Source: Pseudoalteromonas tetraodonis
GTDB taxonomy: Bacteria > Pseudomonadota > Gammaproteobacteria > Enterobacterales > Alteromonadaceae
Length of the DNA: 32,000 nucleotides
Direction: 5' to 3'
Assembly: GCF_002310835.1 (NCBI RefSeq)
Contig: NZ_CP011041.1
Location: 2,340,001-2,372,000, forward strand
Shown here: in pieces, positions 7,042-20,706 of the stretch
Layout of the letters: every line of letters starts with the position of its first letter
Numbering within the stretch: the first letter of the stretch is position 1
Program-made: the position numbers and the translations under genes
The notes under the pieces: model-generated
Seen by the model: only the letters and a program-made list of their open reading frames with translations
What the model was told of the DNA's origin: nothing
The model's database searches: none

Positions 7042-7707
7042 CTAAGCACTTTTACTTAACGGTGTTCCACTGTGAAACTTAAAGTCTTCGTCATCAGATA
7101 AAATTAACTGTGCTTCTATTTCAGCAAATTCTTTTACCCGCTCGGTAATATCAAAATCAGCAATGTCTTGAGCAAGGGTTAAATAATCTTGGTAATGACG
7201 TGCCTCAGAGCGCAGCAATGAAATATAAAAATCCCCTAAGCGTTTATCTACATGGGGTGCAAGCTTGGCAAAGCGTTCACACGAGCGAGCTTCTATGTAA
7301 GCACCTACAATAAGCTTATCAACTAAGGCATTAGGCTCAAACGTTTTAACATTGCGTAGCATGCCTTTGGCATAACGACATGGCGTTATACTTTTATATT
7401 CAACACCGTATTCATCCATAATTTCGAGCACTTGATAGAAATGATGCAGCTCTTCTTTTATCAGCATTACCATTTTATCAATTAAATCTTGGCCATAAGG
7501 CGAGTTAGATTTAGGGATAATGGATTTAGTGAGTTTATTTTTAGCCGCTAAATCACGCCAATTTCCCTCACGTTTATAAATAAGCGTTTCAAACGGTTTA
7601 AGCCATTCAAGCAGTGCATCACTGCTCTCTTTATCTACCGCATACTTACGAATTAAAAACATGGCACTTTGCGCCGCTTTTAATTCATTAAATGTAAATA
7701 TGTGCAT
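7042..7707 (-). pseudogene. miaE: 3' part of the host miaE, cut off from its 5' end by the island; the apparent ATG at 7707 is island-derived
   Basis: The ORF reads MHIFTFNEL|KAAQSAMFLIRKY...EELHHF...EARSCERF...SEARHY (ferritin-like di-iron motifs). From K10 onward it is colinear with residues 48-257 of the intact paralogue at 18020..18793. The first 9 codons have no counterpart there and lie inside the island arm. Confidence 0.8.
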
Positions 7708-7714
7708 ATATAAA
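7701..7714. repeat. left terminal inverted repeat of the island (TGTGCATATATAAA)
   Basis: Exact reverse complement of 20487-20500. Confidence 0.8.
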
Positions 7715-7840
7715 TAGCAATATATTTATCAAGTAGTTAATGAAAAATTATGCTGGGATAGTTTTTATTTGCGAATAGAATTAAATTCATATTCGTACAG
7801 AGTAAGATAGAACGTAAACAATTTTGAAAGCGTGTGGAAT

Positions 7841-9262
7841 CTATCCAGTGTTCGCCTTAGTGAATTGATAAAAATGTTTTTTTAGTAATGATTTTGAAAT
7901 ATTGGTTTTAGATTGACCTAAACTGTTGCCTTTCAAACCCCTATAGTATTTATCTCTGACTTTATCAGAAACGACTATTTTCAAAGTCTGCGGCTCGATT
8001 GATATTAAAAACCTGTCAAATAGTCGATGTATATCGACTCTGAGACATAGTCCATTTTGCAACAGATTGGATTGTTCTCCTTTGTAAGGAATAATATGGG
8101 CAGCTTCTAACAAAGCCAGCTCAGCACATCCTGATACGGCACATTTTGAATAAAAGTTATCAAGAGTTAATGATCTAAATCCCTGCTGGCCAACCCTTGT
8201 AACTTGGCTCCTAGTGACTCTATCCCTGTTATCTTCTGTTAACGCATGTAGGCTCACTTGCTCTTTATCATCTATTTTTGTGTGAACATTTTCTGTTAAC
8301 TTATCAATATCTTCTTCATCAATGTCAAAATCTAAATCAAGAATTTGGGGGTGTTCTAAAAAGGCTTTCCAGTGTTTTTTCTGGCTATCAATTTTTGTAG
8401 ATTTTCTAATAATAGCTAATGCTTCACATGCCGCAGATATTGAAGAAAATGAGTAATTGCGCTCTTCCCATAATTTTAAAATACGCTTTAAAGGAAGCTG
8501 CACAACTTCAGATCTATTATATTTTTTTCTGTGAAACGGATTGATTGTGATTATCTGATCATTTTGAGGATTTTCTGCTAACTCAATATCCTTTAACTTT
8601 CTTTCAAATTCACTGATCAAATCATGATTTAAGTAGCTTTCCCAACCCTTATAGTTCTTAATATTACCATCATTAACATTCTTAATAGCCAATATTTCTG
8701 CCGCAGCTTCTTTTGTACCACATAACTTTAACCTGTGATGCCAAACTAACTCTACCTCCTCTAAAGTAAGCTCAGTTACATCTTCAGGGTCAAACACATA
8801 TAGGTGCAGTGGCAGGTTATGTTTTACTTGGGTAGCAGTAGTCTCTTTATTTGGCGTATCTATTGTTTCGTAAAGATCATTTGAGCTCATTGATAAAGCA
8901 AAATCATCATCGAGATCTAAATCATCATCTAAAGGTATTTCCGTACTCTGCTTTTCTAAAAGGTATCGCTCGACATTAAAAGATGGACCAGGATTAATTT
9001 TTCTTTTAGTTTTATTATTCTTTTTTCCTTTATGCTCGGCATAAGCCTGTTTAGCTTTATTAAAATCAACAATATTTAAAAACTTCTTGAAAGCACTAAA
9101 ATTTTCTTTATTTTCATAAGCTACTTTAAGAGCTTTCTTCTCACTTTTAGTTAACATGAATTCATGTTTCGCTAGTAGGTGAAATAAGTCGTTTATGCTT
9201 TTCCCTTTAGAATAATATTCAAAGATATCTTTTTTTATTCCAATAACAGTACGCTTCATCAT
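7841..9262 (-). CDS. orphan protein: tandem HTH-like modules + acidic linkers + C-terminal McrA/HNH_2-type nuclease domain
   Basis: 473 aa. C-terminus reads RVGQQGFRSLTLDNFYSKCAVSGCAELALLEAAHIIPY...LLQNGLCLRVDIHRLFDRFLISI. This is the pattern I know from ScoMcrA-like HNH_2 nucleases; putative triad H389/N403/H412. Residues ~155-213 and ~247-304 are an internal duplication. The gene is visibly more AT-rich than the adjacent hsd genes. Confidence 0.7.
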   Translation of the reverse strand: MMKRTVIGIKKDIFEYYSKGKSINDLFHLLAKHEFMLTKSEKKALKVAYENKENFSAFKKFLNIVDFNKAKQAYAEHKGKKNNKTKRKINPGPSFNVERYLLEKQSTEIPLDDDLDLDDDFALSMSSNDLYETIDTPNKETTATQVKHNLPLHLYVFDPEDVTELTLEEVELVWHHRLKLCGTKEAAAEILAIKNVNDGNIKNYKGWESYLNHDLISEFERKLKDIELAENPQNDQIITINPFHRKKYNRSEVVQLPLKRILKLWEERNYSFSSISAACEALAIIRKSTKIDSQKKHWKAFLEHPQILDLDFDIDEEDIDKLTENVHTKIDDKEQVSLHALTEDNRDRVTRSQVTRVGQQGFRSLTLDNFYSKCAVSGCAELALLEAAHIIPYKGEQSNLLQNGLCLRVDIHRLFDRFLISIEPQTLKIVVSDKVRDKYYRGLKGNSLGQSKTNISKSLLKKHFYQFTKANTG

Positions 9263-9328
9263 AATTCTCTAAATAGATCTATATTTTGATATTATCTACA
9301 TCTTTAATATAACTCGCGAAATTCCTAT

Positions 9329-11839
9329 TCACCTTGCATACAAATACTTCTGAAAACCTATAAACGTATCGCGTATCGCAGCTGGTGATCCAAACTCAAT
9401 AGCGGCGTCATTAATGGTGTTGTATTTAAGCTCTACTAAGCTACGCATTTTTTTAGGAGCCAGTTCTTGCACGCCGTCTTCAATGTATTTACTTAATATA
9501 AAGTTGATAAACTCTTGTTGTTTATAGTCAGTAAATGCAGAGTTTATTTTAGGCTTAGCTTGTTGAGCTCGTTCTGTGCGTGTTTGCGCTTCTGCGGCAT
9601 AGGCTACGTAGGATAAAACATCGTATACGTCGCTGTCTTGTGCATCAATTACGGCTTTCATACTATCGAGTTTTTCGCTATCGTAGCCCGCTTCGGTTAA
9701 GTCTTCTAATAGCTTTTCGCGAGTTGTTGGGTCACTCCATATTTCGCGTAGTTGGTCTTCGTTTTCAAAAAAGCGCGGTAGGTCGTCAAACATACGTTCA
9801 ACAAATTCTTTTGCTGTAATGGGCTTACCTTCTGCACTCCAGTACATTGCTGAGGAAATATGCTTAATTTGTCGTGTACGGCCGTCTGAGAGCTTTATTT
9901 CGAGCTTTTCACATACACATGGCCTTTCGCCACATTTTTCACAGCTTTCAGGCTCTGGCTTTTCACAAACACACGGCTTTTGTTCACACACCTTACACGG
10001 TTTCTTTTCACCGGCACCATCACCGCCAGTGTCTTCACATTGGCACGGGGTTGTGCCGCACTCTGGGCATACTTCGCTGGGTATTGGCTCACCATCCCAA
10101 GCTGGGTCAGCAAAGTTATGGTGCGCTTTTACAAAGTCGTAAATGGTAAAGTAGTCTTTGCCATCGTAAGTGCGGGTGCCTCGGCCAATGATCTGCTTAA
10201 ACTCAATCATATTATTACAAGGGCGCATGAGCACAATGTTACGTACATTACGTGCATCTACGCCTGTAGAGAGTTTGCGTGATGTGGTTAAAATTGTCGG
10301 AATCGTTTTTTCGTTATCACAAAAGGTTTTTAAATCGTTTTCACCCGCTACGCCATCGTTAGCGGTAACACGAACACAATAGTTAGTGTTGGTAGTCCAG
10401 CCCTTTTTAACTGCATACTGATTAATAAAATCGCGCACCATACCGGCATGAACTTGTGTAGCACAAAACACGATGGTTTTTTCTTTATGATTAAAACGAT
10501 CCATCCAATAGTGTACACGGCGCTCTTCGCGCTGAGGTATAGTAATAATGCGGTTAAAATCACCTTCTTTATACAGTTTACCGGGCTCAGGATCGCCTTT
10601 TACAATAACTCCATCACCCTTTATATAAGTGTACTCATCCATAGTGCCAACAATGGGTAGCACTTTAAATGGCGTTAAAAAGCCATCGTTAATGCCTTCT
10701 TTTAGGGTGTAGCTGTAAACGGGTTCGCCAAAGTAACCATAGGTATCAGCGTTATCGGTACGCTTTGGTGTGGCGGTTAAACCTAGCTGAACTGCTGGTT
10801 CAAAGTGTTTAAGAATATCACGCCAAGCACTTTCATCATTTGCGCCACCACGGTGACACTCATCAATAATAATTAAATCAAAAAAATCAGCTGGGTATTG
10901 CTCGTAATACGGATTTTCTGCCTTTTTGAGTGGCGCATTTTCATCTTCTTCTGTTGTGGCTTCTTTTAATTCGGTTTTAGGCCCACACATAAGGGTATGA
11001 AAAATTGTAAAAAACACACTGGCATTTTTTGGTACGCCGCCTCGTTTACGAATATCGTCAGGGGTGATACGTACAATGGCATCTTCACCAAATGAGCCAA
11101 AATCATTAAATGCCTGATTAGCTAAAATATTACGATCAGCCAAAAATAAAATACGCGGGCGCTTTTTAGCAAGCCTTATATCTTTCTGCGCGGTCAAACT
11201 CCAACGGGTTTGAAATAACTTCCATGCGGTTTGAAAGCCAATACAGGTTTTACCCGTACCGGTAGCCAGTGTAAGCAGTATGCGATTTTTGCCTTGAGCA
11301 ATAGCATCAAGGGCATTGTGAATGGCGTTTTCTTGATAATAACGGGGTGCCCAATCACCTTTAGCTTCAAAAGGGATGGTAGAAAACGCATCACGCCAAG
11401 CGGTTGTGTAATCCGCTTCTGGTTTATCACCTTGTTGTTCAAAGGTTAAATCCCATAGCGCTTGGGGAGACATATATTCATCTACCAGCGTCTCAATACC
11501 TGTGAGCATATCAATCTGGTAAATCTCATGGCCGTTGGTGGCATACGCAATACGGCATTGCAGACGCTTTGCGTAGTCTTTGGCTTGGCGCACACCTTCG
11601 CTGTAAGTCAGGCTTTCTTTTTTGGCTTCTACTGCGGCAAGCTTACGGCCTTTATATACCAACACATAATCGCAAGGCACTTTGTTAGCGCGTTTGCCAC
11701 CCGCCATAATTTGGCCTGGGCAAATAAGCTCGCGGCGAATAAAGCTGTTATCAACTTCACCCCAACCCGCAGCGACTAGTTTAGGGTCGATTAAATCCGC
11801 TCTGGTGTCGGCTTCGTTACGCGTCCTTGCTTGTGACAT
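9329..11839 (-). CDS. hsdR: type I restriction enzyme R subunit (EcoEI/EcoAI-like C-terminus) with a Cys-rich insert
   Basis: 836 aa. N-terminal PD-(D/E)xK-like CDYVL...AAVEAKK. SF2 helicase motifs LATGTGKT, IIIDECHRG, LGLTATP, QIIGRGTR. The C-terminal region resembles the EcoEI R C-terminal domain. Its ATG overlaps the hsdS stop (TAATG). Confidence 0.9.
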   Translation of the reverse strand: MSQARTRNEADTRADLIDPKLVAAGWGEVDNSFIRRELICPGQIMAGGKRANKVPCDYVLVYKGRKLAAVEAKKESLTYSEGVRQAKDYAKRLQCRIAYATNGHEIYQIDMLTGIETLVDEYMSPQALWDLTFEQQGDKPEADYTTAWRDAFSTIPFEAKGDWAPRYYQENAIHNALDAIAQGKNRILLTLATGTGKTCIGFQTAWKLFQTRWSLTAQKDIRLAKKRPRILFLADRNILANQAFNDFGSFGEDAIVRITPDDIRKRGGVPKNASVFFTIFHTLMCGPKTELKEATTEEDENAPLKKAENPYYEQYPADFFDLIIIDECHRGGANDESAWRDILKHFEPAVQLGLTATPKRTDNADTYGYFGEPVYSYTLKEGINDGFLTPFKVLPIVGTMDEYTYIKGDGVIVKGDPEPGKLYKEGDFNRIITIPQREERRVHYWMDRFNHKEKTIVFCATQVHAGMVRDFINQYAVKKGWTTNTNYCVRVTANDGVAGENDLKTFCDNEKTIPTILTTSRKLSTGVDARNVRNIVLMRPCNNMIEFKQIIGRGTRTYDGKDYFTIYDFVKAHHNFADPAWDGEPIPSEVCPECGTTPCQCEDTGGDGAGEKKPCKVCEQKPCVCEKPEPESCEKCGERPCVCEKLEIKLSDGRTRQIKHISSAMYWSAEGKPITAKEFVERMFDDLPRFFENEDQLREIWSDPTTREKLLEDLTEAGYDSEKLDSMKAVIDAQDSDVYDVLSYVAYAAEAQTRTERAQQAKPKINSAFTDYKQQEFINFILSKYIEDGVQELAPKKMRSLVELKYNTINDAAIEFGSPAAIRDTFIGFQKYLYAR

Positions 11840-13059
11840 TAGACCACAGCTCCTTCTTTTTCTTTCGTTAACTCACCTGAAAAGGCTTTTTGTAGAATAG
11901 ATTTTTTGAGTTCGTCTAAACTATCGAGCTTCTTTATGTAAATCCATTCCAGGTGGAAATACTGTTGCTTTAAAGATTTAAGAGCACGCACTATTTCTTC
12001 CTGCTGTTTTTGTGGAGCCAGCGGTGCAAGAAAAGATCTCATTGTTTTCAAAGATACATTCTTTATTGTTGCCCCAGTAGCTTCTCGTAAAGCATATTTT
12101 TGAAATAGAGGGCTCTCAATTACAAATTTTATATACTCTTTATTTACGTTTTCTTCTAAGTTGAAGTAGCAAGCACTTTTCCCAAGAATTACTTTTTCAT
12201 TGTTATAAAATGCTACATTACCAAGAGTTCCATTTATAGAAACAAAGACTGTTCGATCATTAAGAGGCTTTTTGTACTTATTATATTCTTCCCTAGAAAC
12301 TCTCTTGGTTTTTTCTTTAATCGTTATTTTTCCATCATCTAAATTATTACCATTGATAAAGAAATATTCACCCTCAGGATCGTACTTTGGTGTTCCGTGC
12401 AATCCATCTCCAAGTTTTGTCGTTATATCCGAAATTGGTGCTTCAACCCATCCCTCACCACTCTGGCTAAATACTTGCTGCAAGTAGCTTTCAAACAGCT
12501 CGCGGGCGTTTTTGAGGTTTTGCTCGGTCTTAGCGCGGGCTTGTTCTATATCAACAAAGGCTCGATCTAGAATGGCGACGATGCGTTTTTGTTCTTCTTC
12601 GCTAGGTGTCGGGACCATAATCTCTTTAAGAATTTTGACCGAAGCCATATTCTTAATCGCTGCCCCTTGTGATAACGACTCAATTTGCTCCTGAAAATTA
12701 CGGCTTTCCATCCAAAGCTTTAAAAATTGAGGTGACAAGTTTTTATTAGGCGTTAATTTGAGTAATGCTTGATTAATTATGCCTTGCTTAATTCCTGAAG
12801 GTACAATTGCAATCTTTCCCATAGTGCCAGAGCAACTCATAATCAAATCATTAGGGAAAAGTTCAAACCGTCCCATTTCTGAAAATTTATCTTCATCTAC
12901 AAAATATCTAACACTATCAAATTGGTTATAAATGGCATGTTGTTGCTCATAGACAGCATACCCGTCCTCTTTGAATATATTCTTTTTAAGAGCACCACCA
13001 AAAGGCCCCCTAACAAATTCACAGACATCACCAAAACGCTTAGTTTCCCAAGTCATCAC
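11839..13059 (-). CDS. hsdS: type I R-M specificity subunit with two target-recognition domains
   Basis: 406 aa with a bipartite TRD-conserved-TRD-conserved layout. The conserved helices are EEQKRIVAILDRAFVDIEQARAKTEQNLKNARELFESYLQ and QQEEIVRALKSLKQQ...LDELKKSILQKAF. The start is GTG 13059 or, more likely, ATG 13056 (TGATG overlap with the hsdM stop; GGAG 8 nt upstream). Confidence 0.9.
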   Translation of the reverse strand: MMTWETKRFGDVCEFVRGPFGGALKKNIFKEDGYAVYEQQHAIYNQFDSVRYFVDEDKFSEMGRFELFPNDLIMSCSGTMGKIAIVPSGIKQGIINQALLKLTPNKNLSPQFLKLWMESRNFQEQIESLSQGAAIKNMASVKILKEIMVPTPSEEEQKRIVAILDRAFVDIEQARAKTEQNLKNARELFESYLQQVFSQSGEGWVEAPISDITTKLGDGLHGTPKYDPEGEYFFINGNNLDDGKITIKEKTKRVSREEYNKYKKPLNDRTVFVSINGTLGNVAFYNNEKVILGKSACYFNLEENVNKEYIKFVIESPLFQKYALREATGATIKNVSLKTMRSFLAPLAPQKQQEEIVRALKSLKQQYFHLEWIYIKKLDSLDELKKSILQKAFSGELTKEKEGAVV

Positions 13060-14522
13060 AACAACTCCTGAATCTTACCCAGAATCGCTTCGCTCTCTTT
13101 ATCCAACGCGATGATTTCTTCAATGATGGCTTGCGGTTCACGCAGTGGGGCTTCTTCTGCTTGGTTCGGGTTTTTAACTGATAAATCCCATGTTGCATCA
13201 TTAAGCTCAGACGTTGCCAATAGCCAAGACTTAGCGCTGTCCTCAAAGCCTTTTTGTAGCTCTACAAATTCTTTTAAGTCTTTGTCGTTTAGCGGATTGG
13301 TTTTACCCAAGCTGCGGCCAGGGTCTAGCTGATAGAACCAAGTTTTCTGTGTCGGTTCGCCTTTGGTGAAAAACAACACCACGGTTTTAACCCCAGCACC
13401 TAAGAAGGTCTTTGCTGGGCAATCGAGTACGGTGTGTAAGTTGCAGTTTTCTAATAGCTCTTTGCGCAAGGCAATGGCGGCATTATCGGTATTCGATAAA
13501 AAAGTGTTTTTAATCACAATAGCGGCACGGCCACCAGGCTTTAGCATCTTGATAAAGTGTTGCAAAAACAAGAAGGCAGTTTCACCGGTTTTAATCGGGA
13601 AGTTTTGCTGAACTTCTTTGCGCTCTTTACCGCCAAATGGCGGGTTAGCCAATACAATATCGTGCTGGTTGCTTGGGGTAATGTCTTGTAGGTTTTCGCC
13701 CAGCGTATTGGTGTGAATAACGTTAGGTGCTTCGATGCCATGCAAAATCATGTTCATAATGGCGATAACGTACGCTAAAGACTTTTTCTCTTTGGCGTAA
13801 AAGGTGTGTTCTTGCAGGGTTTTTAAATCGCTGGTTGAAAGCTGCTTTTTGCTGGCACCACCTTGGCGAAGATAGTCGTAGGCTTCACACAAGAAGCCTG
13901 CCGACCCTGCTGCACCATCGTATATGGTTTCGCCAATTTGTGGCTGTAATACGTCTATCATGGCGCGGATTAATGGGCGTGGTGTGTAATATTCGCCACC
14001 GTTGCGACCAGCGTTGCCCATATTTTTAATTTTTACCTCGTACAGGTGTGAAAGCTCATGTTTTTCTTCTTGTGAGCGAAAACGTAATTCATCTACTTTC
14101 TCTAGCGCATCACGCAATGAATAACCACTTTGAATTTTGTTTTTGATCTCGCTAAATATCTCACCAATCTTGTATTCAATGGTGTCAGGGCCGTTGGCAC
14201 GTAGCTTAAAACCTTTAAGGTAAGGGAATAACTCACCATCAACAAAATCCATTAAATCGCTACCAGTTCGGGCTTTGTCGTGATCAAACTCACCATTAGC
14301 AGTTTTAGGTGCAGCCCACGAACTCCAGCGGAAGTCTACATCAATAATGTATTCGTAGTTTTCCGCCATCAATTCGGCTTCTTGAGACTTGGTAAACTCT
14401 AAGTCGTCAAGGTATTTTAAAAATAGCATCCACGACGATTGTTCGGTGTAGTCTAATTCACTAGAGCAACCTGAGTCTTTATGAAAAATGTCGTCGATGT
14501 TTTTAAAAGTTTGTTCAAACAT
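13056..14522 (-). CDS. hsdM: type I R-M N6-adenine DNA methyltransferase subunit
   Basis: 488 aa. HsdM N-terminal domain (LFLKYLDD). AdoMet motif I DGAAGSAGFL. Catalytic motif IV LANPPFGG. First gene of the M-S-R operon. Confidence 0.9.
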   Translation of the reverse strand: MFEQTFKNIDDIFHKDSGCSSELDYTEQSSWMLFLKYLDDLEFTKSQEAELMAENYEYIIDVDFRWSSWAAPKTANGEFDHDKARTGSDLMDFVDGELFPYLKGFKLRANGPDTIEYKIGEIFSEIKNKIQSGYSLRDALEKVDELRFRSQEEKHELSHLYEVKIKNMGNAGRNGGEYYTPRPLIRAMIDVLQPQIGETIYDGAAGSAGFLCEAYDYLRQGGASKKQLSTSDLKTLQEHTFYAKEKKSLAYVIAIMNMILHGIEAPNVIHTNTLGENLQDITPSNQHDIVLANPPFGGKERKEVQQNFPIKTGETAFLFLQHFIKMLKPGGRAAIVIKNTFLSNTDNAAIALRKELLENCNLHTVLDCPAKTFLGAGVKTVVLFFTKGEPTQKTWFYQLDPGRSLGKTNPLNDKDLKEFVELQKGFEDSAKSWLLATSELNDATWDLSVKNPNQAEEAPLREPQAIIEEIIALDKESEAILGKIQELL

Positions 14523-14934
14523 TATTGTTTTATCCCTGCATAGGCTGTAGAGCCTATTTAAATGTTTATATAATTATTTTAGCCACTTATTATTAGATGC
14601 GTTAAAAGCTTTAAGTGGTATTTATTATTCTCATCCATGCTTGAGCAACATAATCGATGGTTTTATTTTGCCCATCAACATTACCCAGTACATGACTGTA
14701 TTTCAAGCAGTTAAACCAAAAAGAAAAATTGCAATAAAAGCACTAAGTACGTTTGTTGTATTACGTCAATAAGCGAAGCTTTTATTGTTGTATGGATTAC
14801 ATTGGAAGTATAAAGGGAAAAACATTAACAAAGAAGTGCTGGGTTTGAATTGAAATACTTTAATATCCACTTCAACCAATAACTTATACTTTTTAATTCT
14901 TAACGCGAAGCACCTCATAAACTTGCTTGATTTG

Positions 14935-14972
14935 CTTTAGCGAACTTTATATTTTTAATATGTTCGCTAAAG
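14935..14972. repeat. 11-bp perfect inverted repeat (CTTTAGCGAAC / GTTCGCTAAAG) with a 16-nt AT loop
   Basis: Read directly from the sequence. It lies in the 540-bp non-coding gap between hsdM and the (MD)n gene. Confidence 0.6.
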
Positions 14973-15017
14973 TTGGTTTTATACAGCCCGCATTCAAAGC
15001 GAAGTAATTTGAGTGTA

Positions 15018-15054
15018 TTAATAACTGTAATTCAAAAAGAGTTACAGTTATTAA
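15018..15054. repeat. 13-bp perfect inverted repeat (TTAATAACTGTAA / TTACAGTTATTAA) with an 11-nt loop
   Basis: It starts 9 nt beyond the stop (15063-15065) of the minus-strand gene 15063..15821. No clear T run follows on the minus strand, so it may be a terminator-like hairpin or an operator. Confidence 0.5.
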
Positions 15055-15062
15055 CAACCTTA

Positions 15063-15821
15063 TTACGCCTTGTCTATGTGCTTTGCAACAGTTTGTCTAC
15101 TGAGACCTACAGCTTTAGAAATTGCCTTATAGGTCATGCTAGGAATCTCCTTTTTTAACAGGGCTGCATGCGTCTTAGGCTCACCCTGTTTTATCATTAG
15201 AAGACATGAGCTTTTACGGTTTAATTCCTCTTTGAGCTCTACATTTAACAAATGAAGACTTTCAAGATCTGCATCTTTTTGCGTAACCATAGCCAATAAT
15301 TGTAACCACTTTTTCAGTAGATTGAGAAATGAACGATAATCAGAACATGCCAGTAATCTTTGTTTACTGAATAAGCGGTTTTTTAACAAACCGATTAGAT
15401 GCGGGTTTGAGTCTGCCTCAAGCTTATGAAAAACCCTTGTAACCTGCTCATTTAAGGGGCTAAAGCGAATAACTTTATTACACCAGCTCTCATCCTGTTG
15501 AAACTCGTTTGCACAAGCCCGTAAAATCTTAGTTGCTGGCGCGGGTTCATTAAGGGCTAAGCTGATAAGGTAATAAAGCTGCTCATCACTTAGACTCTGA
15601 CGAGTTAAGCCTTCTTTATCCGCCTTTTCTTTTTGTAAAATGCGAATATTGGCTAAAACAGCTGCCCTTTGTTTTTTAAGGTTGTTCAGCTCAGTAAATT
15701 GTTTTTTTAGCTGCATATCATGGCTTATAATGGGTTCTTCCATATCCATATCCATATCCATATCCATATCCATATCCATATCCATATCCATATCCATATC
15801 CATATCCATATCCATATCCAT
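15063..15821 (-). CDS. hypothetical DNA-binding protein with an (Met-Asp)13 N-terminal repeat and a C-terminal HTH
   Basis: 252 aa. The C-terminus MTYKAISKAVGLSRQTVAKHIDKA looks like a resolvase/Hin-type HTH. The central part is helical and Leu-rich. The true start is ambiguous because every repeat unit supplies an in-frame ATG. Confidence 0.6.
   Translation of the reverse strand: MDMDMDMDMDMDMDMDMDMDMDMDMDMEEPIISHDMQLKKQFTELNNLKKQRAAVLANIRILQKEKADKEGLTRQSLSDEQLYYLISLALNEPAPATKILRACANEFQQDESWCNKVIRFSPLNEQVTRVFHKLEADSNPHLIGLLKNRLFSKQRLLACSDYRSFLNLLKKWLQLLAMVTQKDADLESLHLLNVELKEELNRKSSCLLMIKQGEPKTHAALLKKEIPSMTYKAISKAVGLSRQTVAKHIDKA
15741..15821 (-). repeat. hexanucleotide microsatellite (ATGGAT)13 + ATG at the 5' end of the gene
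   Basis: The plus strand shows CATATC x13 from 15741 to 15818, then CAT (15819-15821). An A7 run follows on the coding strand just upstream (15823-15829). Confidence 0.95.
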
Positions 15822-16051
15822 ATTTTTTTCCCATATTCCGTTATGACAAGTTAATATCTTAACATAAATGGCACGACTCGTTATTTTTACCCTTAAATTA
15901 ATTATTATTTATTAAGAAAATTATTTATTAACGCCTACAATCAACCATGAACAAATTAGATAAAAAATTAGCAATATTTATTTTTACCGATTGGCGTCGA
16001 GTTGCCCCAAATACGTTACGATAGTAATAATCAAAACAAGGAATAGAGTTT

Positions 16052-16516
16052 ATGAGTAACGTATATATTGAAATTGAATTCATCTCAATTGTTGAAAACC
16101 TAGATAATGTATTTTCAGTTAAAATTGATGACACCATTAGTCTTAATGTAACCCTAGAAAAGGAGAACTGCACGTTAAGCGTAGACTTAACAGTTATGGA
16201 ATCTAAGGAGTTTATCTTCGACGAAAATACAGGGGCTATAACAGGCGATGCAAGTTTGAAAGTCTTGCCTGTGTCCTTAGAAAAGGCAAAAGCTATCTTC
16301 TGGGAAGAAGAGTCCATATGGGGTTCTATTCGCCCCCGATCTTCGAAAGATATAATAGCTTTCGAGGCAAATGCTCATAAAAAGAAAATTAAATTTTCTA
16401 AAAGAGTCAGCCCATCAACTAAAGAAAACACACTAACAGATGAAAGCGAAACTGCTATAAAAGACGAGCATGAGGGGCTATTAGACTCAATGGGTGTTTG
16501 CCCAGAAAAATGTTAA
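16052..16516 (+). CDS. hypothetical acidic protein
   Basis: 154 aa. AGGAA lies ~10 nt upstream of the ATG. It is divergent from the (MD)n gene and sits directly upstream of the oriT-like region and the relaxase. I recognise no motif. Confidence 0.5.
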   Translation: MSNVYIEIEFISIVENLDNVFSVKIDDTISLNVTLEKENCTLSVDLTVMESKEFIFDENTGAITGDASLKVLPVSLEKAKAIFWEEESIWGSIRPRSSKDIIAFEANAHKKKIKFSKRVSPSTKENTLTDESETAIKDEHEGLLDSMGVCPEKC

Positions 16517-16531
16517 CCCACCGCGGAGCGA

Positions 16532-16627
16532 CATTTTGGCTGAGTTGCGTAGCGTTACTCTTGCCAAAATGTGGAGTGGGTGCACAATTTACAATTGTGT
16601 TCAAAGTTGTCTATAGACAACTTTGAA
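16532..16627 (+). promoter_or_regulatory. candidate oriT: three consecutive hairpins/palindromes upstream of the relaxase gene
   Basis: First, CATTTTGGC (16532-16540) pairs with GCCAAAATG (16563-16571), with flanking CCCAC/GTGGG. Second, CACAATT-TAC-AATTGTG spans 16583-16599. Third, a 28-bp perfect palindrome TTCAAAGTTGTCTATAGACAACTTTGAA spans 16600-16627. Confidence 0.5.
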
Positions 16628-16666
16628 GATGCATCCACATTTAAAAAAATGGCTAAGGATTAGGCA

Positions 16667-17464
16667 ATGATTGATACAAGCAACAATAAAGCTATCTTCA
16701 GGATAAAAAAAATTAATTTGCAAAGACAGTTACGTGCTGCCCTTGCTCATAATTTGCGACTGGTAAACCCTCCAAACGTAAACACTGAGCTATCTCATTA
16801 TAATATCCAAGCAAAAGGGTTAAACACTATTGAAGCCTGTATGAGTCGGTTTGAGAGTGCTTTAGAGGGTATAAAAGTGCGTAAGAATGCTGTACTAGCT
16901 CATGAAGCTATTATCACAGGCTCTCCAGATCATATGAATAAATTGACAAAAAAACAGCAAATAGCATATTTCACTGATGCTGCACACTGGCTAGTTAAAT
17001 TACATGGAGGAGATTACAAAAATATCCTTTGTTTATCAATACATTACGATGAATTAGGCGCACACGGTCACTATTTAATGGTACCCAAAATAGAATCAAA
17101 GTTAAATAGCCGAGCTATTATTGGTGGAGCTCGAGGCAGACTTAGCGAATTACAAACGGAGTTTTACGAAAAAGTGGCAAAAAAATACGGATTTACACGA
17201 GGTGTAAAAAATAGTAAAGCTACACACCAGCACTACAGTGAATTTAAAAACCTTAAAAACGACTTAAGTGAGGTAAAGAATAAATTGGAACAAACCAAAA
17301 TTGAGTACAAGACAGCCCTTAATAGACTCAGCTCTGCTCAGCAAAGCCTGTTATTTATAAAAAAGGAACTGAAACTAGCTAAAACTCTGGGGGTATCTGA
17401 CTTAAGAAGAAAAATCGCTCTTCTGGAAAAGAATACTATGTTTAAGGTAACCCCACGCATTTAG
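16667..17464 (+). CDS. MobV-family (Mob/Pre) relaxase
   Basis: 265 aa. It aligns by eye to pMV158 MobM motifs: AHNLR (HxxR), RKNAVLAHEAIITGS, and IHYDELGAHGHYLMVP (HxDE...HxH metal site). It continues with LNSRAII and KATHQHYSEFK, followed by a C-terminal coiled coil. Confidence 0.8.
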   Translation: MIDTSNNKAIFRIKKINLQRQLRAALAHNLRLVNPPNVNTELSHYNIQAKGLNTIEACMSRFESALEGIKVRKNAVLAHEAIITGSPDHMNKLTKKQQIAYFTDAAHWLVKLHGGDYKNILCLSIHYDELGAHGHYLMVPKIESKLNSRAIIGGARGRLSELQTEFYEKVAKKYGFTRGVKNSKATHQHYSEFKNLKNDLSEVKNKLEQTKIEYKTALNRLSSAQQSLLFIKKELKLAKTLGVSDLRRKIALLEKNTMFKVTPRI

Positions 17465-17633
17465 AGTTATTGCCTTAGCGATTAAATTAAATTTCATGAA
17501 GTAACTAAACAAATAAAAATTATTTAACCTCTCAGGTTCCGAGTTAAAAAAATCGGCTATAATCAGAGATTCAAACAATGGTGTTGTTTTAATAACACTT
17601 TTTTATCCGCTAAATGCTAAGGAAAGCAATTTA

Positions 17634-17873
17634 ATGAAGTTACATGTTACCCGCCAAGTCAAAGCTGTATTGGAAGAAGACAAGGGCTTAGATGAGCATT
17701 ATGTCACTGATAAGTTAAGCTACTTTGAAAAAGCTAAAACCAACCGCGAAGCACTTATGATTTCTAGCTTTTTAGATCGAGAGGGTCGAAAAATGCTTGC
17801 TAACCGCCTGAAAATGAACGAACGTGACTTAACGGGATTTTATCAAATAGTCGAACAATCTTATTGGTGGTAG
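17634..17873 (+). CDS. small hypothetical protein (79 aa)
   Basis: Good SD (AAGGAAAG, 7-8 nt upstream of the ATG). A TATAAT at 17558-17563 lies upstream. A strong terminator follows. No recognisable motif. Confidence 0.5.
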   Translation: MKLHVTRQVKAVLEEDKGLDEHYVTDKLSYFEKAKTNREALMISSFLDREGRKMLANRLKMNERDLTGFYQIVEQSYWW

Positions 17874-17913
17874 AGTAATCGGAGACTTACTACTATAGAT
17901 TAATTATTTTATT

Positions 17914-17944
17914 AAACATGGGCTTATAAACCCATGTTTTTTTT
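17914..17944 (+). terminator. rho-independent terminator
   Basis: AAACATGGG (17914-17922) pairs with CCCATGTTT (17931-17939) across an 8-nt loop, followed by T8. Confidence 0.8.
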
Positions 17945-18019
17945 ATTAATAAGATACAACTCTTAATGAAAGCTTTCTTAAACTTAGATGGTGAAACGCT
18001 AACTTCGCAAGTTAAACCA

Positions 18020-18793
18020 TTATGAAAGTGTAGGCACCCCACTATGAAACTTGAAGTCTTTATCTGGTGATAAAATTAGCTCAGCTTCTATGCCACCAAA
18101 AAATTTGATTCGCTCGGTAATATCAAAATCAGCAATGTCTTGAGCAAGGAGCAAGTAATCTTGATAATGACGCGCTTCTGAACGCAATAACGATATGTAA
18201 AAGTCACCTAAGCGTTTATCTACATGCGGTGCCAGTTTTGCAAAACGCTCACATGAGCGTGCCTCAATATAAGCACCAATAATGAGTTTATCGACTAAAG
18301 CATCTGGCTCATACGATTTGACATGGCGTAACATGCCTTTAGCATAACGACATGGAGTGATGCTTCTATATTCAACACCATATTCATCCATAATTTCGAG
18401 TACTTGATAAAAGTGATGTAGCTCTTCTTTTATTAGCATCACCATTTTATTAATTAAGTCTTGGCCATAGAGAGTATCTGATTTTGGGATCATCGACTTA
18501 GACAATTTATTCTTATCGCTAAGGTCGCGCCAGTCCCCTTCTCTTTTGTATATCAGAGATTCAAAAGGTTTTAACCACTCGAGTAACGCATCACCACTAT
18601 CTTTATCAACGGCATACTTACGAATTAAAAACATTGCTGATTGAGCTGCTTTTAATTCACACACGAGGTGATCTAAAAGTACTATGTCGAGATTCTCATG
18701 TTTTTTTGCTTTTTCAACCCATTTCTTAGGTGTATTACACTGCAAGAAACTATTTATTGGTTCTAAGAGTTTATTAATTTCATTTGAGTTCAT
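18020..18793 (-). CDS. miaE: tRNA-(ms2io6A37)-hydroxylase, island-borne intact copy
   Basis: 257 aa with ferritin-like di-iron motifs: CELKAAQSA, KEELHHF, EARSCERF, RSEARHY. Its ATG lies 2 nt after the recombinase stop (TAG-TA-ATG). Confidence 0.8.
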   Translation of the reverse strand: MNSNEINKLLEPINSFLQCNTPKKWVEKAKKHENLDIVLLDHLVCELKAAQSAMFLIRKYAVDKDSGDALLEWLKPFESLIYKREGDWRDLSDKNKLSKSMIPKSDTLYGQDLINKMVMLIKEELHHFYQVLEIMDEYGVEYRSITPCRYAKGMLRHVKSYEPDALVDKLIIGAYIEARSCERFAKLAPHVDKRLGDFYISLLRSEARHYQDYLLLAQDIADFDITERIKFFGGIEAELILSPDKDFKFHSGVPTLS

Positions 18794-18795
18794 TA

Positions 18796-20469
18796 CTAAT
18801 CATCTTTTAATAATATATCTAAATAGCCACTTTCTGAATGTATCTTAAGGTAATACATGAGGCGAGCTGCATTTTCAACAGTAGATCCCCTGCTTTTGTG
18901 GGGGTACATTAACCTATCGATATCCCAATCAGATGTGCGCACCTCAGTGACATATTCACTTTCTCTATAATACTCTTTTGAACCATAAAAAACACATTGG
19001 TAGGCTTTACGTTTTCGATCATATTGGCTAAATTTGAACCTAGCTACAACGTCATCCTCTTCTAAGCTAAAAGATAATTCCTTGTTTTTTAAAATTATCT
19101 TATTGCCTATCCGATTTAATTCGAGATTATAATTTAAAGGGTCGGTTTGTGATAAATCGACTATTTTTTTAGATATTGAAGCTACATTAAGTTTTGTTTC
19201 AATTTCGGCTTGTATTTCAGCTAGCTGACTAACAATATCATTTATTTCATCATCTAATTCTTCCATCAAACCAAATATTGTTCCTGATTTTTTTTCACTA
19301 TTTTTATAATAATCTTTCAGGTCAGCCAATTTTGTTTGAAGCCCTTTTAATTCATAAGTTAGTTTCGCTTTTTTCTCATGACTGGTAGAGCTTCGTTTTG
19401 CACCACTAATTTTAGCAAGTATCAAGGGCTCAACATAAGCAAAAAAGAAATGATAAGCTACAACATAAGGAAATGTTGTCGGTGCATCACAACTTTCTCC
19501 CCCCGATCTCTGTTTTCTACTACAGCGAAGCAACGGTAATGACTCTGCTGATTGTTGAATACTCATACCTGAACCACAATGCCCACACTTAACCAAGCCA
19601 TGTAAGGGCCACTTCCTGTCAGGTCTAACGCTCGTAAACAGTCGTTCTTTACATATCCGCTGAGAATTATAAAAATCTTTATCACTTACAACCGATTCGT
19701 AAAGCTTCTCATTGTAAACTAAACCTATGCACTTAGGGTTTTGAATTATTCTGATAATTTTTGTCGGATTGATATTTTTCAGTGGCTTTATTTTACCGTA
19801 TTTTTTTCTCAGTGCTCTTTCAATCAAAACTTGACCAAGTCCTTCAGCATGCAATTTAAAAATATCTCGCACTACATCCGCGTATTCATTTAACTTGCCT
19901 TTTTGGTCTAGCCAAAAAGGCATCCGCATCTTAGGGGGGATTTTATTTTCTTTGGCGTTATACTCTCGTCGACTCCAAGAGCTTTTTACTTTTTCTGAAC
20001 GCCATTTAGAATCTGAATGAGCCTTATCAATCTCAACAATTAAACGCATACGTGTTGCTAAGTCATTACGCTTACTTGGGGAGTAAACACTTTGGTCTCT
20101 TGCTGTGACAATAGAAACGTCATGATCCCAAATTTTATCAAGCAACTTCTCCGTTTCAGTAATCGTCATTCGAGACAATCTAGAAAAATGCTCAACAAGA
20201 ATAATCGAGCCTTTAGGAACTACCTTTGACTCTATTGCAGCAACAAGCCTCCCCAAAGATCCCGAACTTAAATGCTTGCCCGAAAATGCTGATACACCAG
20301 CATCAATGAGAGGCTTACCTTCAAGCTCAACCACAACGCAGTTCGGGTGACTACGTAACCACTCTCTTTGTGCCTCCCCTTGTCTATACAAAGAGCTGTT
20401 CCCTTCTTGTGCTTGAGAACTAAAGCGCTGGTATAAATATACGTTACCAGATAATTTATCGTCTGACAT
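18796..20469 (-). CDS. large serine recombinase (integrase)
   Basis: 557 aa. Catalytic N-domain: YLYQRFSSQAQ (R-x-S-S-x-x-Q), DAGVSAFSG, LVEHFSRLSR. Recombinase domain, then zinc ribbon CGHCGS...LRCSRKQRSGGESC, then a long coiled coil (LKGLQTKLADLKDYY...LAEIQAEIETKL). Confidence 0.85.
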   Translation of the reverse strand: MSDDKLSGNVYLYQRFSSQAQEGNSSLYRQGEAQREWLRSHPNCVVVELEGKPLIDAGVSAFSGKHLSSGSLGRLVAAIESKVVPKGSIILVEHFSRLSRMTITETEKLLDKIWDHDVSIVTARDQSVYSPSKRNDLATRMRLIVEIDKAHSDSKWRSEKVKSSWSRREYNAKENKIPPKMRMPFWLDQKGKLNEYADVVRDIFKLHAEGLGQVLIERALRKKYGKIKPLKNINPTKIIRIIQNPKCIGLVYNEKLYESVVSDKDFYNSQRICKERLFTSVRPDRKWPLHGLVKCGHCGSGMSIQQSAESLPLLRCSRKQRSGGESCDAPTTFPYVVAYHFFFAYVEPLILAKISGAKRSSTSHEKKAKLTYELKGLQTKLADLKDYYKNSEKKSGTIFGLMEELDDEINDIVSQLAEIQAEIETKLNVASISKKIVDLSQTDPLNYNLELNRIGNKIILKNKELSFSLEEDDVVARFKFSQYDRKRKAYQCVFYGSKEYYRESEYVTEVRTSDWDIDRLMYPHKSRGSTVENAARLMYYLKIHSESGYLDILLKDD

Positions 20470-20474
20470 AGCAA

Positions 20475-20642
20475 TTACTCACTGAATTTATATATGCACA
20501 CATTATCATTGAGCTCACATATTAAGTGATCAATTAATATGATGGGTAAGTTTTCTTTTTTGATTGCTTGTTCAACCCACTCATCGGGAGTACTGCATAA
20601 TAAAAAATTGTTAATTGGCTCTAAAAGCTGGCTATGTGGCAC
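20475..20642 (-). pseudogene. miaE: 5' stub of the host miaE (44 host codons + 11 island-encoded codons + TAA)
   Basis: Too short for the ORF track. Reverse translation from GTG 20642 reads (V)PHSQLLEPINNFLLCSTPDEWVEQAIKKENLPIILIDHLICEL|NDNVCIYKFSE*. The host part is colinear with residues 4-47 of the island MiaE (...KLLEPINSFLQCNTPKKWVEKAKKHENLDIVLLDHLVCEL). Confidence 0.75.
20487..20500. repeat. right terminal inverted repeat of the island (TTTATATATGCACA)
   Basis: Exact reverse complement of 7701-7714. It lies 18 nt upstream of the recombinase ATG. Confidence 0.8.
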
Positions 20643-20677
20643 GCTGACTACTCATTGCTAAAAATTGCGATTATGGC

Positions 20678-20706
20678 ATTTTAACATGAAATATTACTCT
20701 GAATAA
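20678..20706 (-). promoter_or_regulatory. candidate sigma70 promoter of the host miaE, now feeding the stub and possibly the recombinase
   Basis: On the minus strand: TTATTC (20706-20701), 17 nt, TAAAAT (20683-20678), about 36 nt upstream of GTG 20642. Motif-level guess only. Confidence 0.3.

Follow-up and report, generated by a model that had tools for sequence, protein, structure and literature searches.

What becomes of a host gene when an island settles within its coding sequence, and why would such an island carry a complete second copy of the gene that it splits? This question is raised by a 32,000-nucleotide stretch of Pseudoalteromonas tetraodonis DNA (contig NZ_CP011041.1, positions 2,340,001 to 2,372,000; hereafter the window, to whose own numbering all coordinates refer). 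Here, miaE, a tRNA-modification gene, is interrupted by a 12,830-bp island that harbors its own recombinase gene and, directly behind it, a second miaE (hereafter the spare). The initial annotation of this DNA had placed the host stub, the recombinase, and the spare at coordinates that all hold in our reading of the sequence and its open reading frames (ORFs). Taken overall, we consider it likely that the island is a miaE-targeting large serine recombinase (LSR) element that carries a compensating whole miaE coupled to its recombinase gene.

The island, its recombinase, and its spare miaE

The island spans positions 7685 to 20516 and is inserted in miaE, as determined by blastn of an empty-site contig against the two window flanks. 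This contig, from another assembly that holds a near-identical unoccupied miaE site, matches the flanks at 99.8% and 99.4% nucleotide identity, and the two matches overlap by three nucleotides, TGA. The upstream host fragment is a 55-codon ORF on the minus strand (20475-20642) that begins with a GTG start codon and is identical in sequence to the 5′ part of the empty-site miaE. It comprises host miaE codons 1 to 42 and the first G of a Glu codon, followed by the island-encoded (E)LNDNVCIYKFSE and a TAA stop codon (20477-20475). The displaced 3′ part (7042-7684, minus strand) holds codons 44 to 256, and its reading frame is still open. Joined at the common TGA, the stub and the distal fragment give a 256-amino acid (aa) protein that is 99% identical, over its full length, to the intact MiaE proteins P0121 and P0122. 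The P0122 contig also shares the gene order of the window flanks: purF, yip1, miaE, an EAL protein (742 aa), and a kinase (645 aa).

Neither junction rebuilds miaE: attL yields the 55-codon stub, and attR yields an ORF without residues 1 to 38. When the island MiaE was used as a tblastn query, it matched the stub (residues 7 to 48, 64% identity) and a second host piece (7686-7060, residues 46 to 254) that is 87% identical to the island copy in amino acids and 80% in nucleotides. We rejected a chimeric reading, in which the full miaE is a fusion of an island 5′ end with a host 3′ end and the element measures only ~1.85 kb, because the empty site matches the stub plus the 3′ part; the latter lies 12.8 kb away. 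The initial annotation had also assigned 11 island-encoded codons to the tail of the stub. These stand, but the preceding residues EL are re-encoded by the island arm as well, with the crossover falling inside the Glu codon of C-E-L.

The spare miaE (18020-18793, minus strand) is complete and starts two nucleotides after the recombinase stop codon (TAG-TA-ATG). Its 257-aa product matches positions 2 to 199 of the 199 in PF06175 (E = 1.8e-86) and aligns to the structure of P. putida MiaE (6ZMA), whose residues Glu38, Glu69, His72, Glu122, Glu151, and His154 served as the reference for the diiron ligands. All six ligands are kept (E46, E124, H127, E177, E206, and H209), which, together with the full-length PF06175 match, identifies the spare as a member of the MiaE family. 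The ratio of nonsynonymous to synonymous substitutions (dN/dS) among island miaE copies is 0.05 to 0.15, with no stop codons, and the nine spares checked contain no frameshifts. The spare is thus under purifying selection, and its product appears functional, in keeping with the earlier description of a complete, diverged island copy. At the nucleotide level, spare and host miaE are 75.5% identical (24.5% divergence), with saturated synonymous divergence (dS) and no window above 90% identity. A recent duplication or gene conversion from the present host was rejected on this evidence, which includes no conversion tract.

The recombinase gene (18796-20469, minus strand) encodes a 557-aa protein with the domains Resolvase, Recombinase, and Zn_ribbon_recom (PF00239, PF07508, and PF13408), all above Pfam cutoffs, and it matches the PHROG 95 integrase (2e-48). 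The motif Y13-x-R15-x-S17 is invariant in 36 recombinase homologs, and weak coiled-coil-like matches occur at residues 355 to 437. Both the domain order and the conserved nucleophile motif are those of LSRs. A single-sequence search found no PDB homolog, and a profile search of the PDB gave weak catalytic-domain matches to 3guv (a resolvase-family recombinase) and to the TP901-1 and phiC31 integrases (E = 4e-5 to 2e-3). By its domains and motif, we class the protein as an LSR that is remote in sequence from every solved member. Serine integrases integrate through attP × attB recombination and require a directionality factor for excision. No such factor was identified in the Pfam, PHROG, and PADLOC searches, in which the island ORFs orf79 and orf154 gave no informative matches.

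The attachment sites were read from the junctions and the empty-site alignment. On the minus strand, attL (20495-20516) consists of the core GA (20516-20515) and the recombinase-proximal P′ arm GCTCAATGATAATGTGTGCA (20514-20495), while attR (7685-7706) consists of the P arm TGCACATATTTACATTTAAT (7706-7687) and the core GA (7686-7685). In miaE orientation, attL reads ...CACTTAATATGT-GA-GCTCAATGATAATGTGTGCA... and attR reads ...TGCACATATTTACATTTAAT-GA-ATTAAAAGCGGCGCAA.... Both ends could be compared in three elements (the window and the related loci L003 and L010), and GA is the sole dinucleotide common to attL and attR in all three; therefore, the crossover dinucleotide is GA. The Glu codon in C-E-L-K-A-A-Q opens with this dinucleotide, and the encoded residue aligns with Glu38 of P. 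putida MiaE, an Fe2 ligand and the first diiron-ligand Glu.

The P′ arm is conserved among elements as GCTnAAnGATAATrTGTGCA, and a 15-nucleotide inverted repeat (ATTTATATATGCACA / TGTGCATATATAAAT) lies within the two island ends. The island arms form an imperfect inverted repeat carrying TGCAC at −20 to −16, and the host B′ arm carries TGCGC at −15 to −11, 5 bp nearer the core. Such an offset is what would be expected for the outer DNA-binding domain on attP versus attB; the figure of 5 bp itself is reportedly from work on the LI integrase. The position of DBD2 differs generally between the attP and attB sites of serine integrases (PMC12286644). The sites thus have the features of LSR attachment sites: attP differs from attB, the half-sites are imperfectly inverted, the core is 2 bp and nonpalindromic, the overlap is TGA only, and no target duplication is present.

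The P arm also contains an ATG (ATGCACA, at 7707) that shares the reading frame of the displaced host 3′ part, and the resulting ORF is 221 aa long (MHIFTFN followed by MiaE from Glu43; 7042-7707). A conserved restart of the host 3′ part at this ATG was rejected: the ATG is found in the window, L003, and L020, and the restart is closed or absent in L007, L026, L012, and L031.

A recombinase family and its target in miaE

Pattern scans of one-genome-per-species contigs and of metagenomes gave 38 further loci, 39 with the window, from Pseudoalteromonas, Alteromonas, Rheinheimera, Colwellia, Thalassotalea, Shewanella, Vibrio, Enterovibrio, and metagenomes. In 37 of the 39, the recombinase gene is immediately preceded by a miaE fragment that meets the same arm at the same Glu codon; the two uninformative loci are a 5′-truncated contig and a degenerate remnant. 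We conclude from these junctions that the recombinase family has a fixed target in miaE. Homologs of the recombinase number 129 at E ≤ 1e-10, and their hosts are Pseudoalteromonas, Alteromonas, Paraglaciecola, Shewanella, Rheinheimera, Colwellia, Thalassotalea, Vibrio, Photobacterium, and Enterovibrio. We found no relatives of the element among phages, plasmids, or viral contigs.

The spare is a recurrent companion of the recombinase. All 17 intact members with at least 48% recombinase identity have a full miaE that starts 0 to 66 nucleotides past the recombinase stop codon or overlaps it; in Shewanella sp. ZOR0012, for example, stub, recombinase, and MiaE follow one another with an 11-nucleotide overlap. 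Within a more distant clade (37 to 45% recombinase identity), the spare adjoins the recombinase in L006, L023, and L007 and lies 1 to 6 kb away in L009, L010, L032, and L033. Most relatives with sequence enough to judge carry what reads as an intact miaE of their own. Overall, the pairing recurs in more than 20 lineages, in three architectures and at least eight genera. The initial annotation had held that its proposal would fall if homologous recombinases were never linked to miaE; instead, linkage is a trait of the family.

The third architecture occurs in L061 (9766-12040) and L063 (9760-12040), where the spare stands directly behind the host stub, ~100 nucleotides after a P′-like arm and with the Shine-Dalgarno sequence AAGGAGG. 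No recombinase was found within 10 kb downstream in either locus. These two loci hold the same island in two hosts with different stubs and upstream genes, and its cargo comprises a different type I restriction-modification system and an AAA_21 protein.

Sequence identities show that the recombinase-miaE module is transferred along with the island and does not follow the host. Between the window and Pseudoalteromonas sp. MMG007 (L001), the module is 97.7% identical in nucleotides and the host flank 80.3%; the islands of these two species are 92 to 98% identical despite host flanks at ~80%. The reverse is seen with L002, where the host flank is 92.3% identical, the module is 82.8% identical, and the cargo differs. 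Nor do the island miaE copies form one co-evolving clade, a possibility that we rejected because they are mixed among chromosomal copies in a neighbor-joining tree, with the window’s spare grouping inside Pseudoalteromonas. In addition, the recombinase of L023, from a non-Pseudoalteromonas host, is 40% identical and its spare 84% identical. This interspersion and the mismatched L023 pairing indicate that spares have been exchanged or re-acquired.

Insertions in reverse orientation occur in 10 of 37 relatives (L007, L010, L012, L019, L020, L026, and L031 to L034). At these flipped loci, the same recombinase-proximal arm is joined through TC, rather than GA, to the reverse complement of the host 3′ part: L019 reads TC-ACTAAATGATAATTTGTGCAAG where L005 reads GA-GCTAAATGATAATATGTGCAAT. 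Work on Bxb1 and phiC31 is said to show that the core dinucleotide alone sets integration polarity, so a core change from GA to TC explains the flips. The family thus supplies natural cases of orientation reversal via the core dinucleotide.

Members of the family also occur in Vibrio parahaemolyticus, where the same LSR family splits miaE in three genomes (L040 to L042; e.g., CP125666.1, 1377529-1399193). Their cargo includes UmuD/UmuC-like genes, a HEPN protein, and a type III restriction-modification system, with no spare miaE seen within 10 kb. They match none of the named VPaI islands that we checked; VPaI-3, at tRNA-Ser, is unrelated. Other members are decaying and have no spare: the recombinase is frameshifted in L011 (10001-11415) and truncated in L012 (10001-10762), and L039 (8903-9257) consists of remnants next to yip1. 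The hosts of these three may have lost MiaE function. Many of the metagenome contigs (L014, L018, L020, L025 to L029, and L031 to L036) begin 100 to 270 nucleotides upstream of the recombinase gene, at or near the junction. This suggests assembly breaks at the junction, caused by coexisting occupied and empty sites or by duplicated miaE sequence.

Proposed expression of the module and possible reasons for a whole gene

Why might the island carry a whole gene? In the compensating account that we favor, a recombinase of a distant LSR clade targets the first diiron-ligand Glu codon of miaE, with crossover at GA. The attP and attB half-sites of LSRs must differ, and this would bar the rebuilding of a split gene through a common core: a P arm encoding miaE codons 38 to 45 as the host does would make attR an attB. 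A separate complete gene would escape the half-site constraint, and this may be the reason that the whole of miaE is carried. With a working spare, insertion would leave host ms2io6A synthesis without cost, and the host probably loses no MiaE function. In the present element and its close relatives, the spare would be translationally coupled to the recombinase gene. We infer the MiaE activity of the spare, the structure of the transcript, and the reason for carrying a full copy.

The layout of the occupied locus fits a single unit of transcription. In the integrated state, the most likely transcript would run from the host miaE promoter through the 55-codon stub, the recombinase, and the spare. 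The putative host promoter is an extended −10 element, TGTTAAAAT (20678-20686, minus strand), read by eye ~36 nucleotides upstream of the GTG start codon. The motif occurs at the same place in L001, L002, L058, and L063; it has no −35 element and was not reported by a consensus promoter scan. The stub’s TAA ends five nucleotides before the recombinase ATG, and the core-to-ATG gap of 47 nucleotides offers a best promoter match of 6/12 and a weak Shine-Dalgarno sequence. Terminator and promoter scans and RNA folds revealed no terminator-like structure or decent promoter between stub, recombinase, and spare, and folding at the two boundaries is unremarkable (z = +0.69 for stub to recombinase and +1.38 for recombinase to miaE). 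A terminator ahead of the recombinase, which the initial annotation had named as fatal to its promoter-capture proposal, is thus not found. Downstream, between the convergent spare and orf79, lies a terminator-like hairpin of 11 bp (17914-17939; −14.1 kcal/mol, z = −3.67) that is likely a bidirectional terminator closing the recombinase-miaE unit; the proposed transcript would end here (17939-17914). In the excised circle, transcription of recombinase and spare would instead have to come from the opposite end of the island, through attP. Two weak promoter-like sites at 7719-7775 (minus strand) read toward the P arm, a number no higher than chance for that end of the island; transcripts from them would enter the recombinase in the circle and, in the integrated island, the host 3′ fragment.

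For the present element, we lean toward capture of the host miaE promoter. The position of the spare right behind the host stub in L061 to L063 also counts in its favor. Several observations weigh against this reading or against the wider compensating account. In the 10 flipped loci, recombinase and host fragment are divergent, with the recombinase pointing away from the host promoter. The arm itself contains TTGACC-16-TATACT in some relatives of the same orientation as the window, and promoter-like hexamers within the recombinase gene (19155-19126, 10/12; 18838-18810, 9/12) could drive the spare independently. Island MiaE copies, as noted, are not one clade. Last, no spare was found within 7.5 to 10 kb in L011, L024, L025, L027, L030, L035, L036, and L040 to L042, all of the more distant clade; with at least 10 such relatives, the spare is not obligatory. 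The flipped loci and arm promoters also mean that dependence on the host promoter is no rule for the family. The module may even be self-sufficient, served by island promoters in both states, with no meaningful capture and with its position a by-product of a recombinase gene abutting attP. We regard this as the less probable reading of the window, yet one with real weight: L019 and L020, with the same recombinase-miaE module, are among the relatives that face away from the host promoter, and several relatives have good promoters in or beside the arm, in addition to the sites inside the recombinase gene. What argues otherwise is the distribution of these promoters. In the flipped close relatives L019 and L020, whose recombinase is out of reach of the host promoter, the gap contains consensus extended −10 promoters of the form TGnTATAAT (TGATATAAT and TGTGATATAAT) and a strong Shine-Dalgarno sequence. 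Strong promoters are absent from the 14 close relatives in the same orientation, where gap scores do not exceed 7/12, except in L003 (9). The window’s short gap, poor promoter match, weak Shine-Dalgarno sequence, and close stub stop codon fit this pattern, and no terminator isolates the module from upstream transcription.

The spare also differs from host miaE at one short motif in the attachment site. Of 11 host sites, occupied or empty, 10 have GCGCA (Ala-Gln, GCG CAA), the reverse complement of the TGCGC noted above, at +11 to +15 of the B′ arm. Among spares the motif is rare (3 of 24); the other 21 read GCTCA (13), GCACA (2), GGNCA (5, in which N varies), or TCGCA (1). The contrast is significant (Fisher p = 1.5e-5) and persists when lineages are collapsed (8/9 versus 3/20, p = 3e-4), and in six of the seven loci with both copies, the host has GCGCA and the spare does not. 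Most of the changes in spares are synonymous (GCG to GCT or GCA) or replace Ala with Gly. The signal is confined to this motif: excess divergence across the spare’s att site was rejected, with 7/20 mismatches in the B arm and 5/20 in the B′ arm (counted by eye) against the gene average of 24.5%. GCTCA is also read in unoccupied chromosomal alleles (L044, L045, L048, L050, and Pseudoalteromonas alleles of the P0185 type), so the contrast may reflect which hosts are invadable rather than selection on spares. GCGCA versus GCTCA may be a single-codon determinant of attB competence. In a further locus, L062 (9390-10642), a host stub is followed by a P′ arm, the first 44 codons of the element’s own spare, an identical P′ arm, and a full spare. 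Such an arrangement resembles a tandem array in which a sibling element has entered the spare of a resident one; the L062 scaffold is from metagenome data and is reported in three samples.

These observations admit a tentative further role for the spare, compatible with compensation, as an att-site device: an allele immune to the island’s own recombinase, or a portable attB on which siblings can stack. The scarcity of GCGCA in spares and the structure of L062, exactly as expected from sibling insertion into a spare, speak for this role. Yet unoccupied chromosomal alleles share GCTCA, the L062 spare itself reads GCTCA, so that the motif cannot be required in that subfamily, and L062 is known from a metagenome scaffold. 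Purifying selection on the whole protein and the intact ligands show that the protein, too, is a reason for retaining the gene. In its fullest form, which is less likely than not, the spare would be the element’s managed copy of its own attachment site, immune in most lineages and a landing pad where competent (L062), alongside a read-through operon and a core flip. If true, an immune spare would protect the circle from deletion of the integrase gene by attP × spare recombination and would block rivals, and serine-recombinase islands would have an undescribed strategy for settling inside a housekeeping gene without penalty to the host. A role in island addiction is improbable. The initial annotation had proposed that the spare ties island maintenance to a tRNA-modification phenotype, which we do not find supported: with the two host fragments still intact, conservative excision at the GA core would regenerate the allele of the empty site. 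The fragments are 99% identical to that allele, and several relatives have no spare nearby. The degenerate loci (L011, L012, and L039) do exist, and after decay of the host fragments the island copy alone would remain, which is the setting in which a host could come to depend on its island. Very improbable, finally, is a one-off origin of the pairing by rearrangement, or its survival as a neutral relic of an earlier tandem insertion. L062 suggests that tandem insertion into a spare can occur and could seed such structures; nevertheless, the survey refutes a one-off event by the recurrence of the pairing across lineages and architectures, and the low dN/dS and the transfer of the module with its island also argue against a neutral leftover. 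Compensation for the split gene remains the account that we prefer.

Cargo and comparison with known elements

The remaining island genes are consistent with mobility and defense. A relaxase gene of the Mob_Pre (MOBV) type (16667-17464, plus strand; PF01076, E = 1.7e-28) has homologs in L001, L003, L009, L010, L014, and L015. Between it and the spare lies orf79 (17634-17873, plus strand), a small ORF that is 97% conserved in L001, has no Pfam match and a weak match to a PHROG of unknown function, and is a candidate accessory factor. By Pfam and PADLOC, the cargo block (7841-14522, minus strand) comprises the type I restriction-modification genes hsdM (14522-13056), hsdS (13059-11839), and hsdR (11839-9329) and an HNH protein gene (9262-7841). 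Compared with L001, hsdM and hsdR are 95 to 97% identical and hsdS is 29% identical (11839-13059 versus L001:17440-18612), which indicates a swap of the specificity subunit. A 252-aa helix-turn-helix protein (15063-15821, minus strand) has an (MD)n N terminus encoded by a perfect hexamer repeat, TCCATA × 14.2 (15739-15823); a tblastn search of the L001 island, which is otherwise 92 to 98% identical, gave no match for the protein. With an integrase, a Mob_Pre relaxase, no conjugation genes among its ORFs, and horizontal movement, the island is classed from its gene content as an integrative mobilizable element (IME) with defense cargo; an oriT was not located.

This family of miaE-specific islands is large and apparently undescribed. 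It spans marine Alteromonadales and Vibrionales, including V. parahaemolyticus, and carries restriction-modification, HEPN, and GTPase defense systems. In the searchable literature, we found no description linking miaE with an integrase, island, mobilizable element, or serine recombinase, nor one of a whole paralogue coupled to an integrase, which the initial annotation had likewise not seen described. The family also provides a new LSR/att pair whose attB falls within a strongly conserved coding motif, and the candidate single-codon determinant of attB competence (GCGCA versus GCTCA) could be useful to those who engineer integrases.

Among IMEs, those of streptococci are said to combine a MOBV relaxase with a serine recombinase. 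The miaE island resembles them in being small, in pairing an integrase with a Mob_Pre relaxase, and in carrying defense cargo without conjugation machinery. It differs from them in its marine gammaproteobacterial hosts and in carrying a copy of its own target.

Target-restoring islands offer a second comparison. SXT/R391 elements in prfC are reportedly of this kind, with a tyrosine integrase. Others occur at the 5′ end of dusA (PMC4482086) and in tRNA and tmRNA genes (PMC4383910), and such tyrosine-integrase islands rebuild their targets through a crossover segment shared by attP and attB (PMC4383910 and PMC4482086). As in these islands, a conserved housekeeping or tRNA-related gene is split and the damage is made good by the element. 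The dusA and prfC islands also target the 5′ end, so that the island must supply expression signals. However, target-restoring islands supply the displaced end at the junction via the common core, whereas the miaE island regenerates no intact miaE at either junction and supplies a separate whole gene.

Serine integrases are usually seen as gene-breaking (comK, sigK, and groEL1), with a host that pays or awaits excision. Gene-splitting LSR elements are said to include Listeria A118/phi10403S in comK, SPbeta in spsM, and skin in sigK. The gin element in gerE is a further case (PMC5595907). The miaE island shares with these elements a resolvase-recombinase-zinc-ribbon LSR, insertion into coding sequence, a 2-bp core without target duplication, dissimilar attP and attB, and imperfect inverted arms; excision would rebuild the gene in each. 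Unlike them, where the gene stays broken until excision, it has a complete paralogue behind the integrase gene, which sets it apart from regulated gene-intervening elements, whose excision responds to developmental or environmental triggers. We know of no element of the comK, spsM, sigK, or gerE type with a full replacement gene. The miaE family thus appears to represent a different solution, in which the whole target gene is carried and, in the present element, would be plugged in behind the host promoter.

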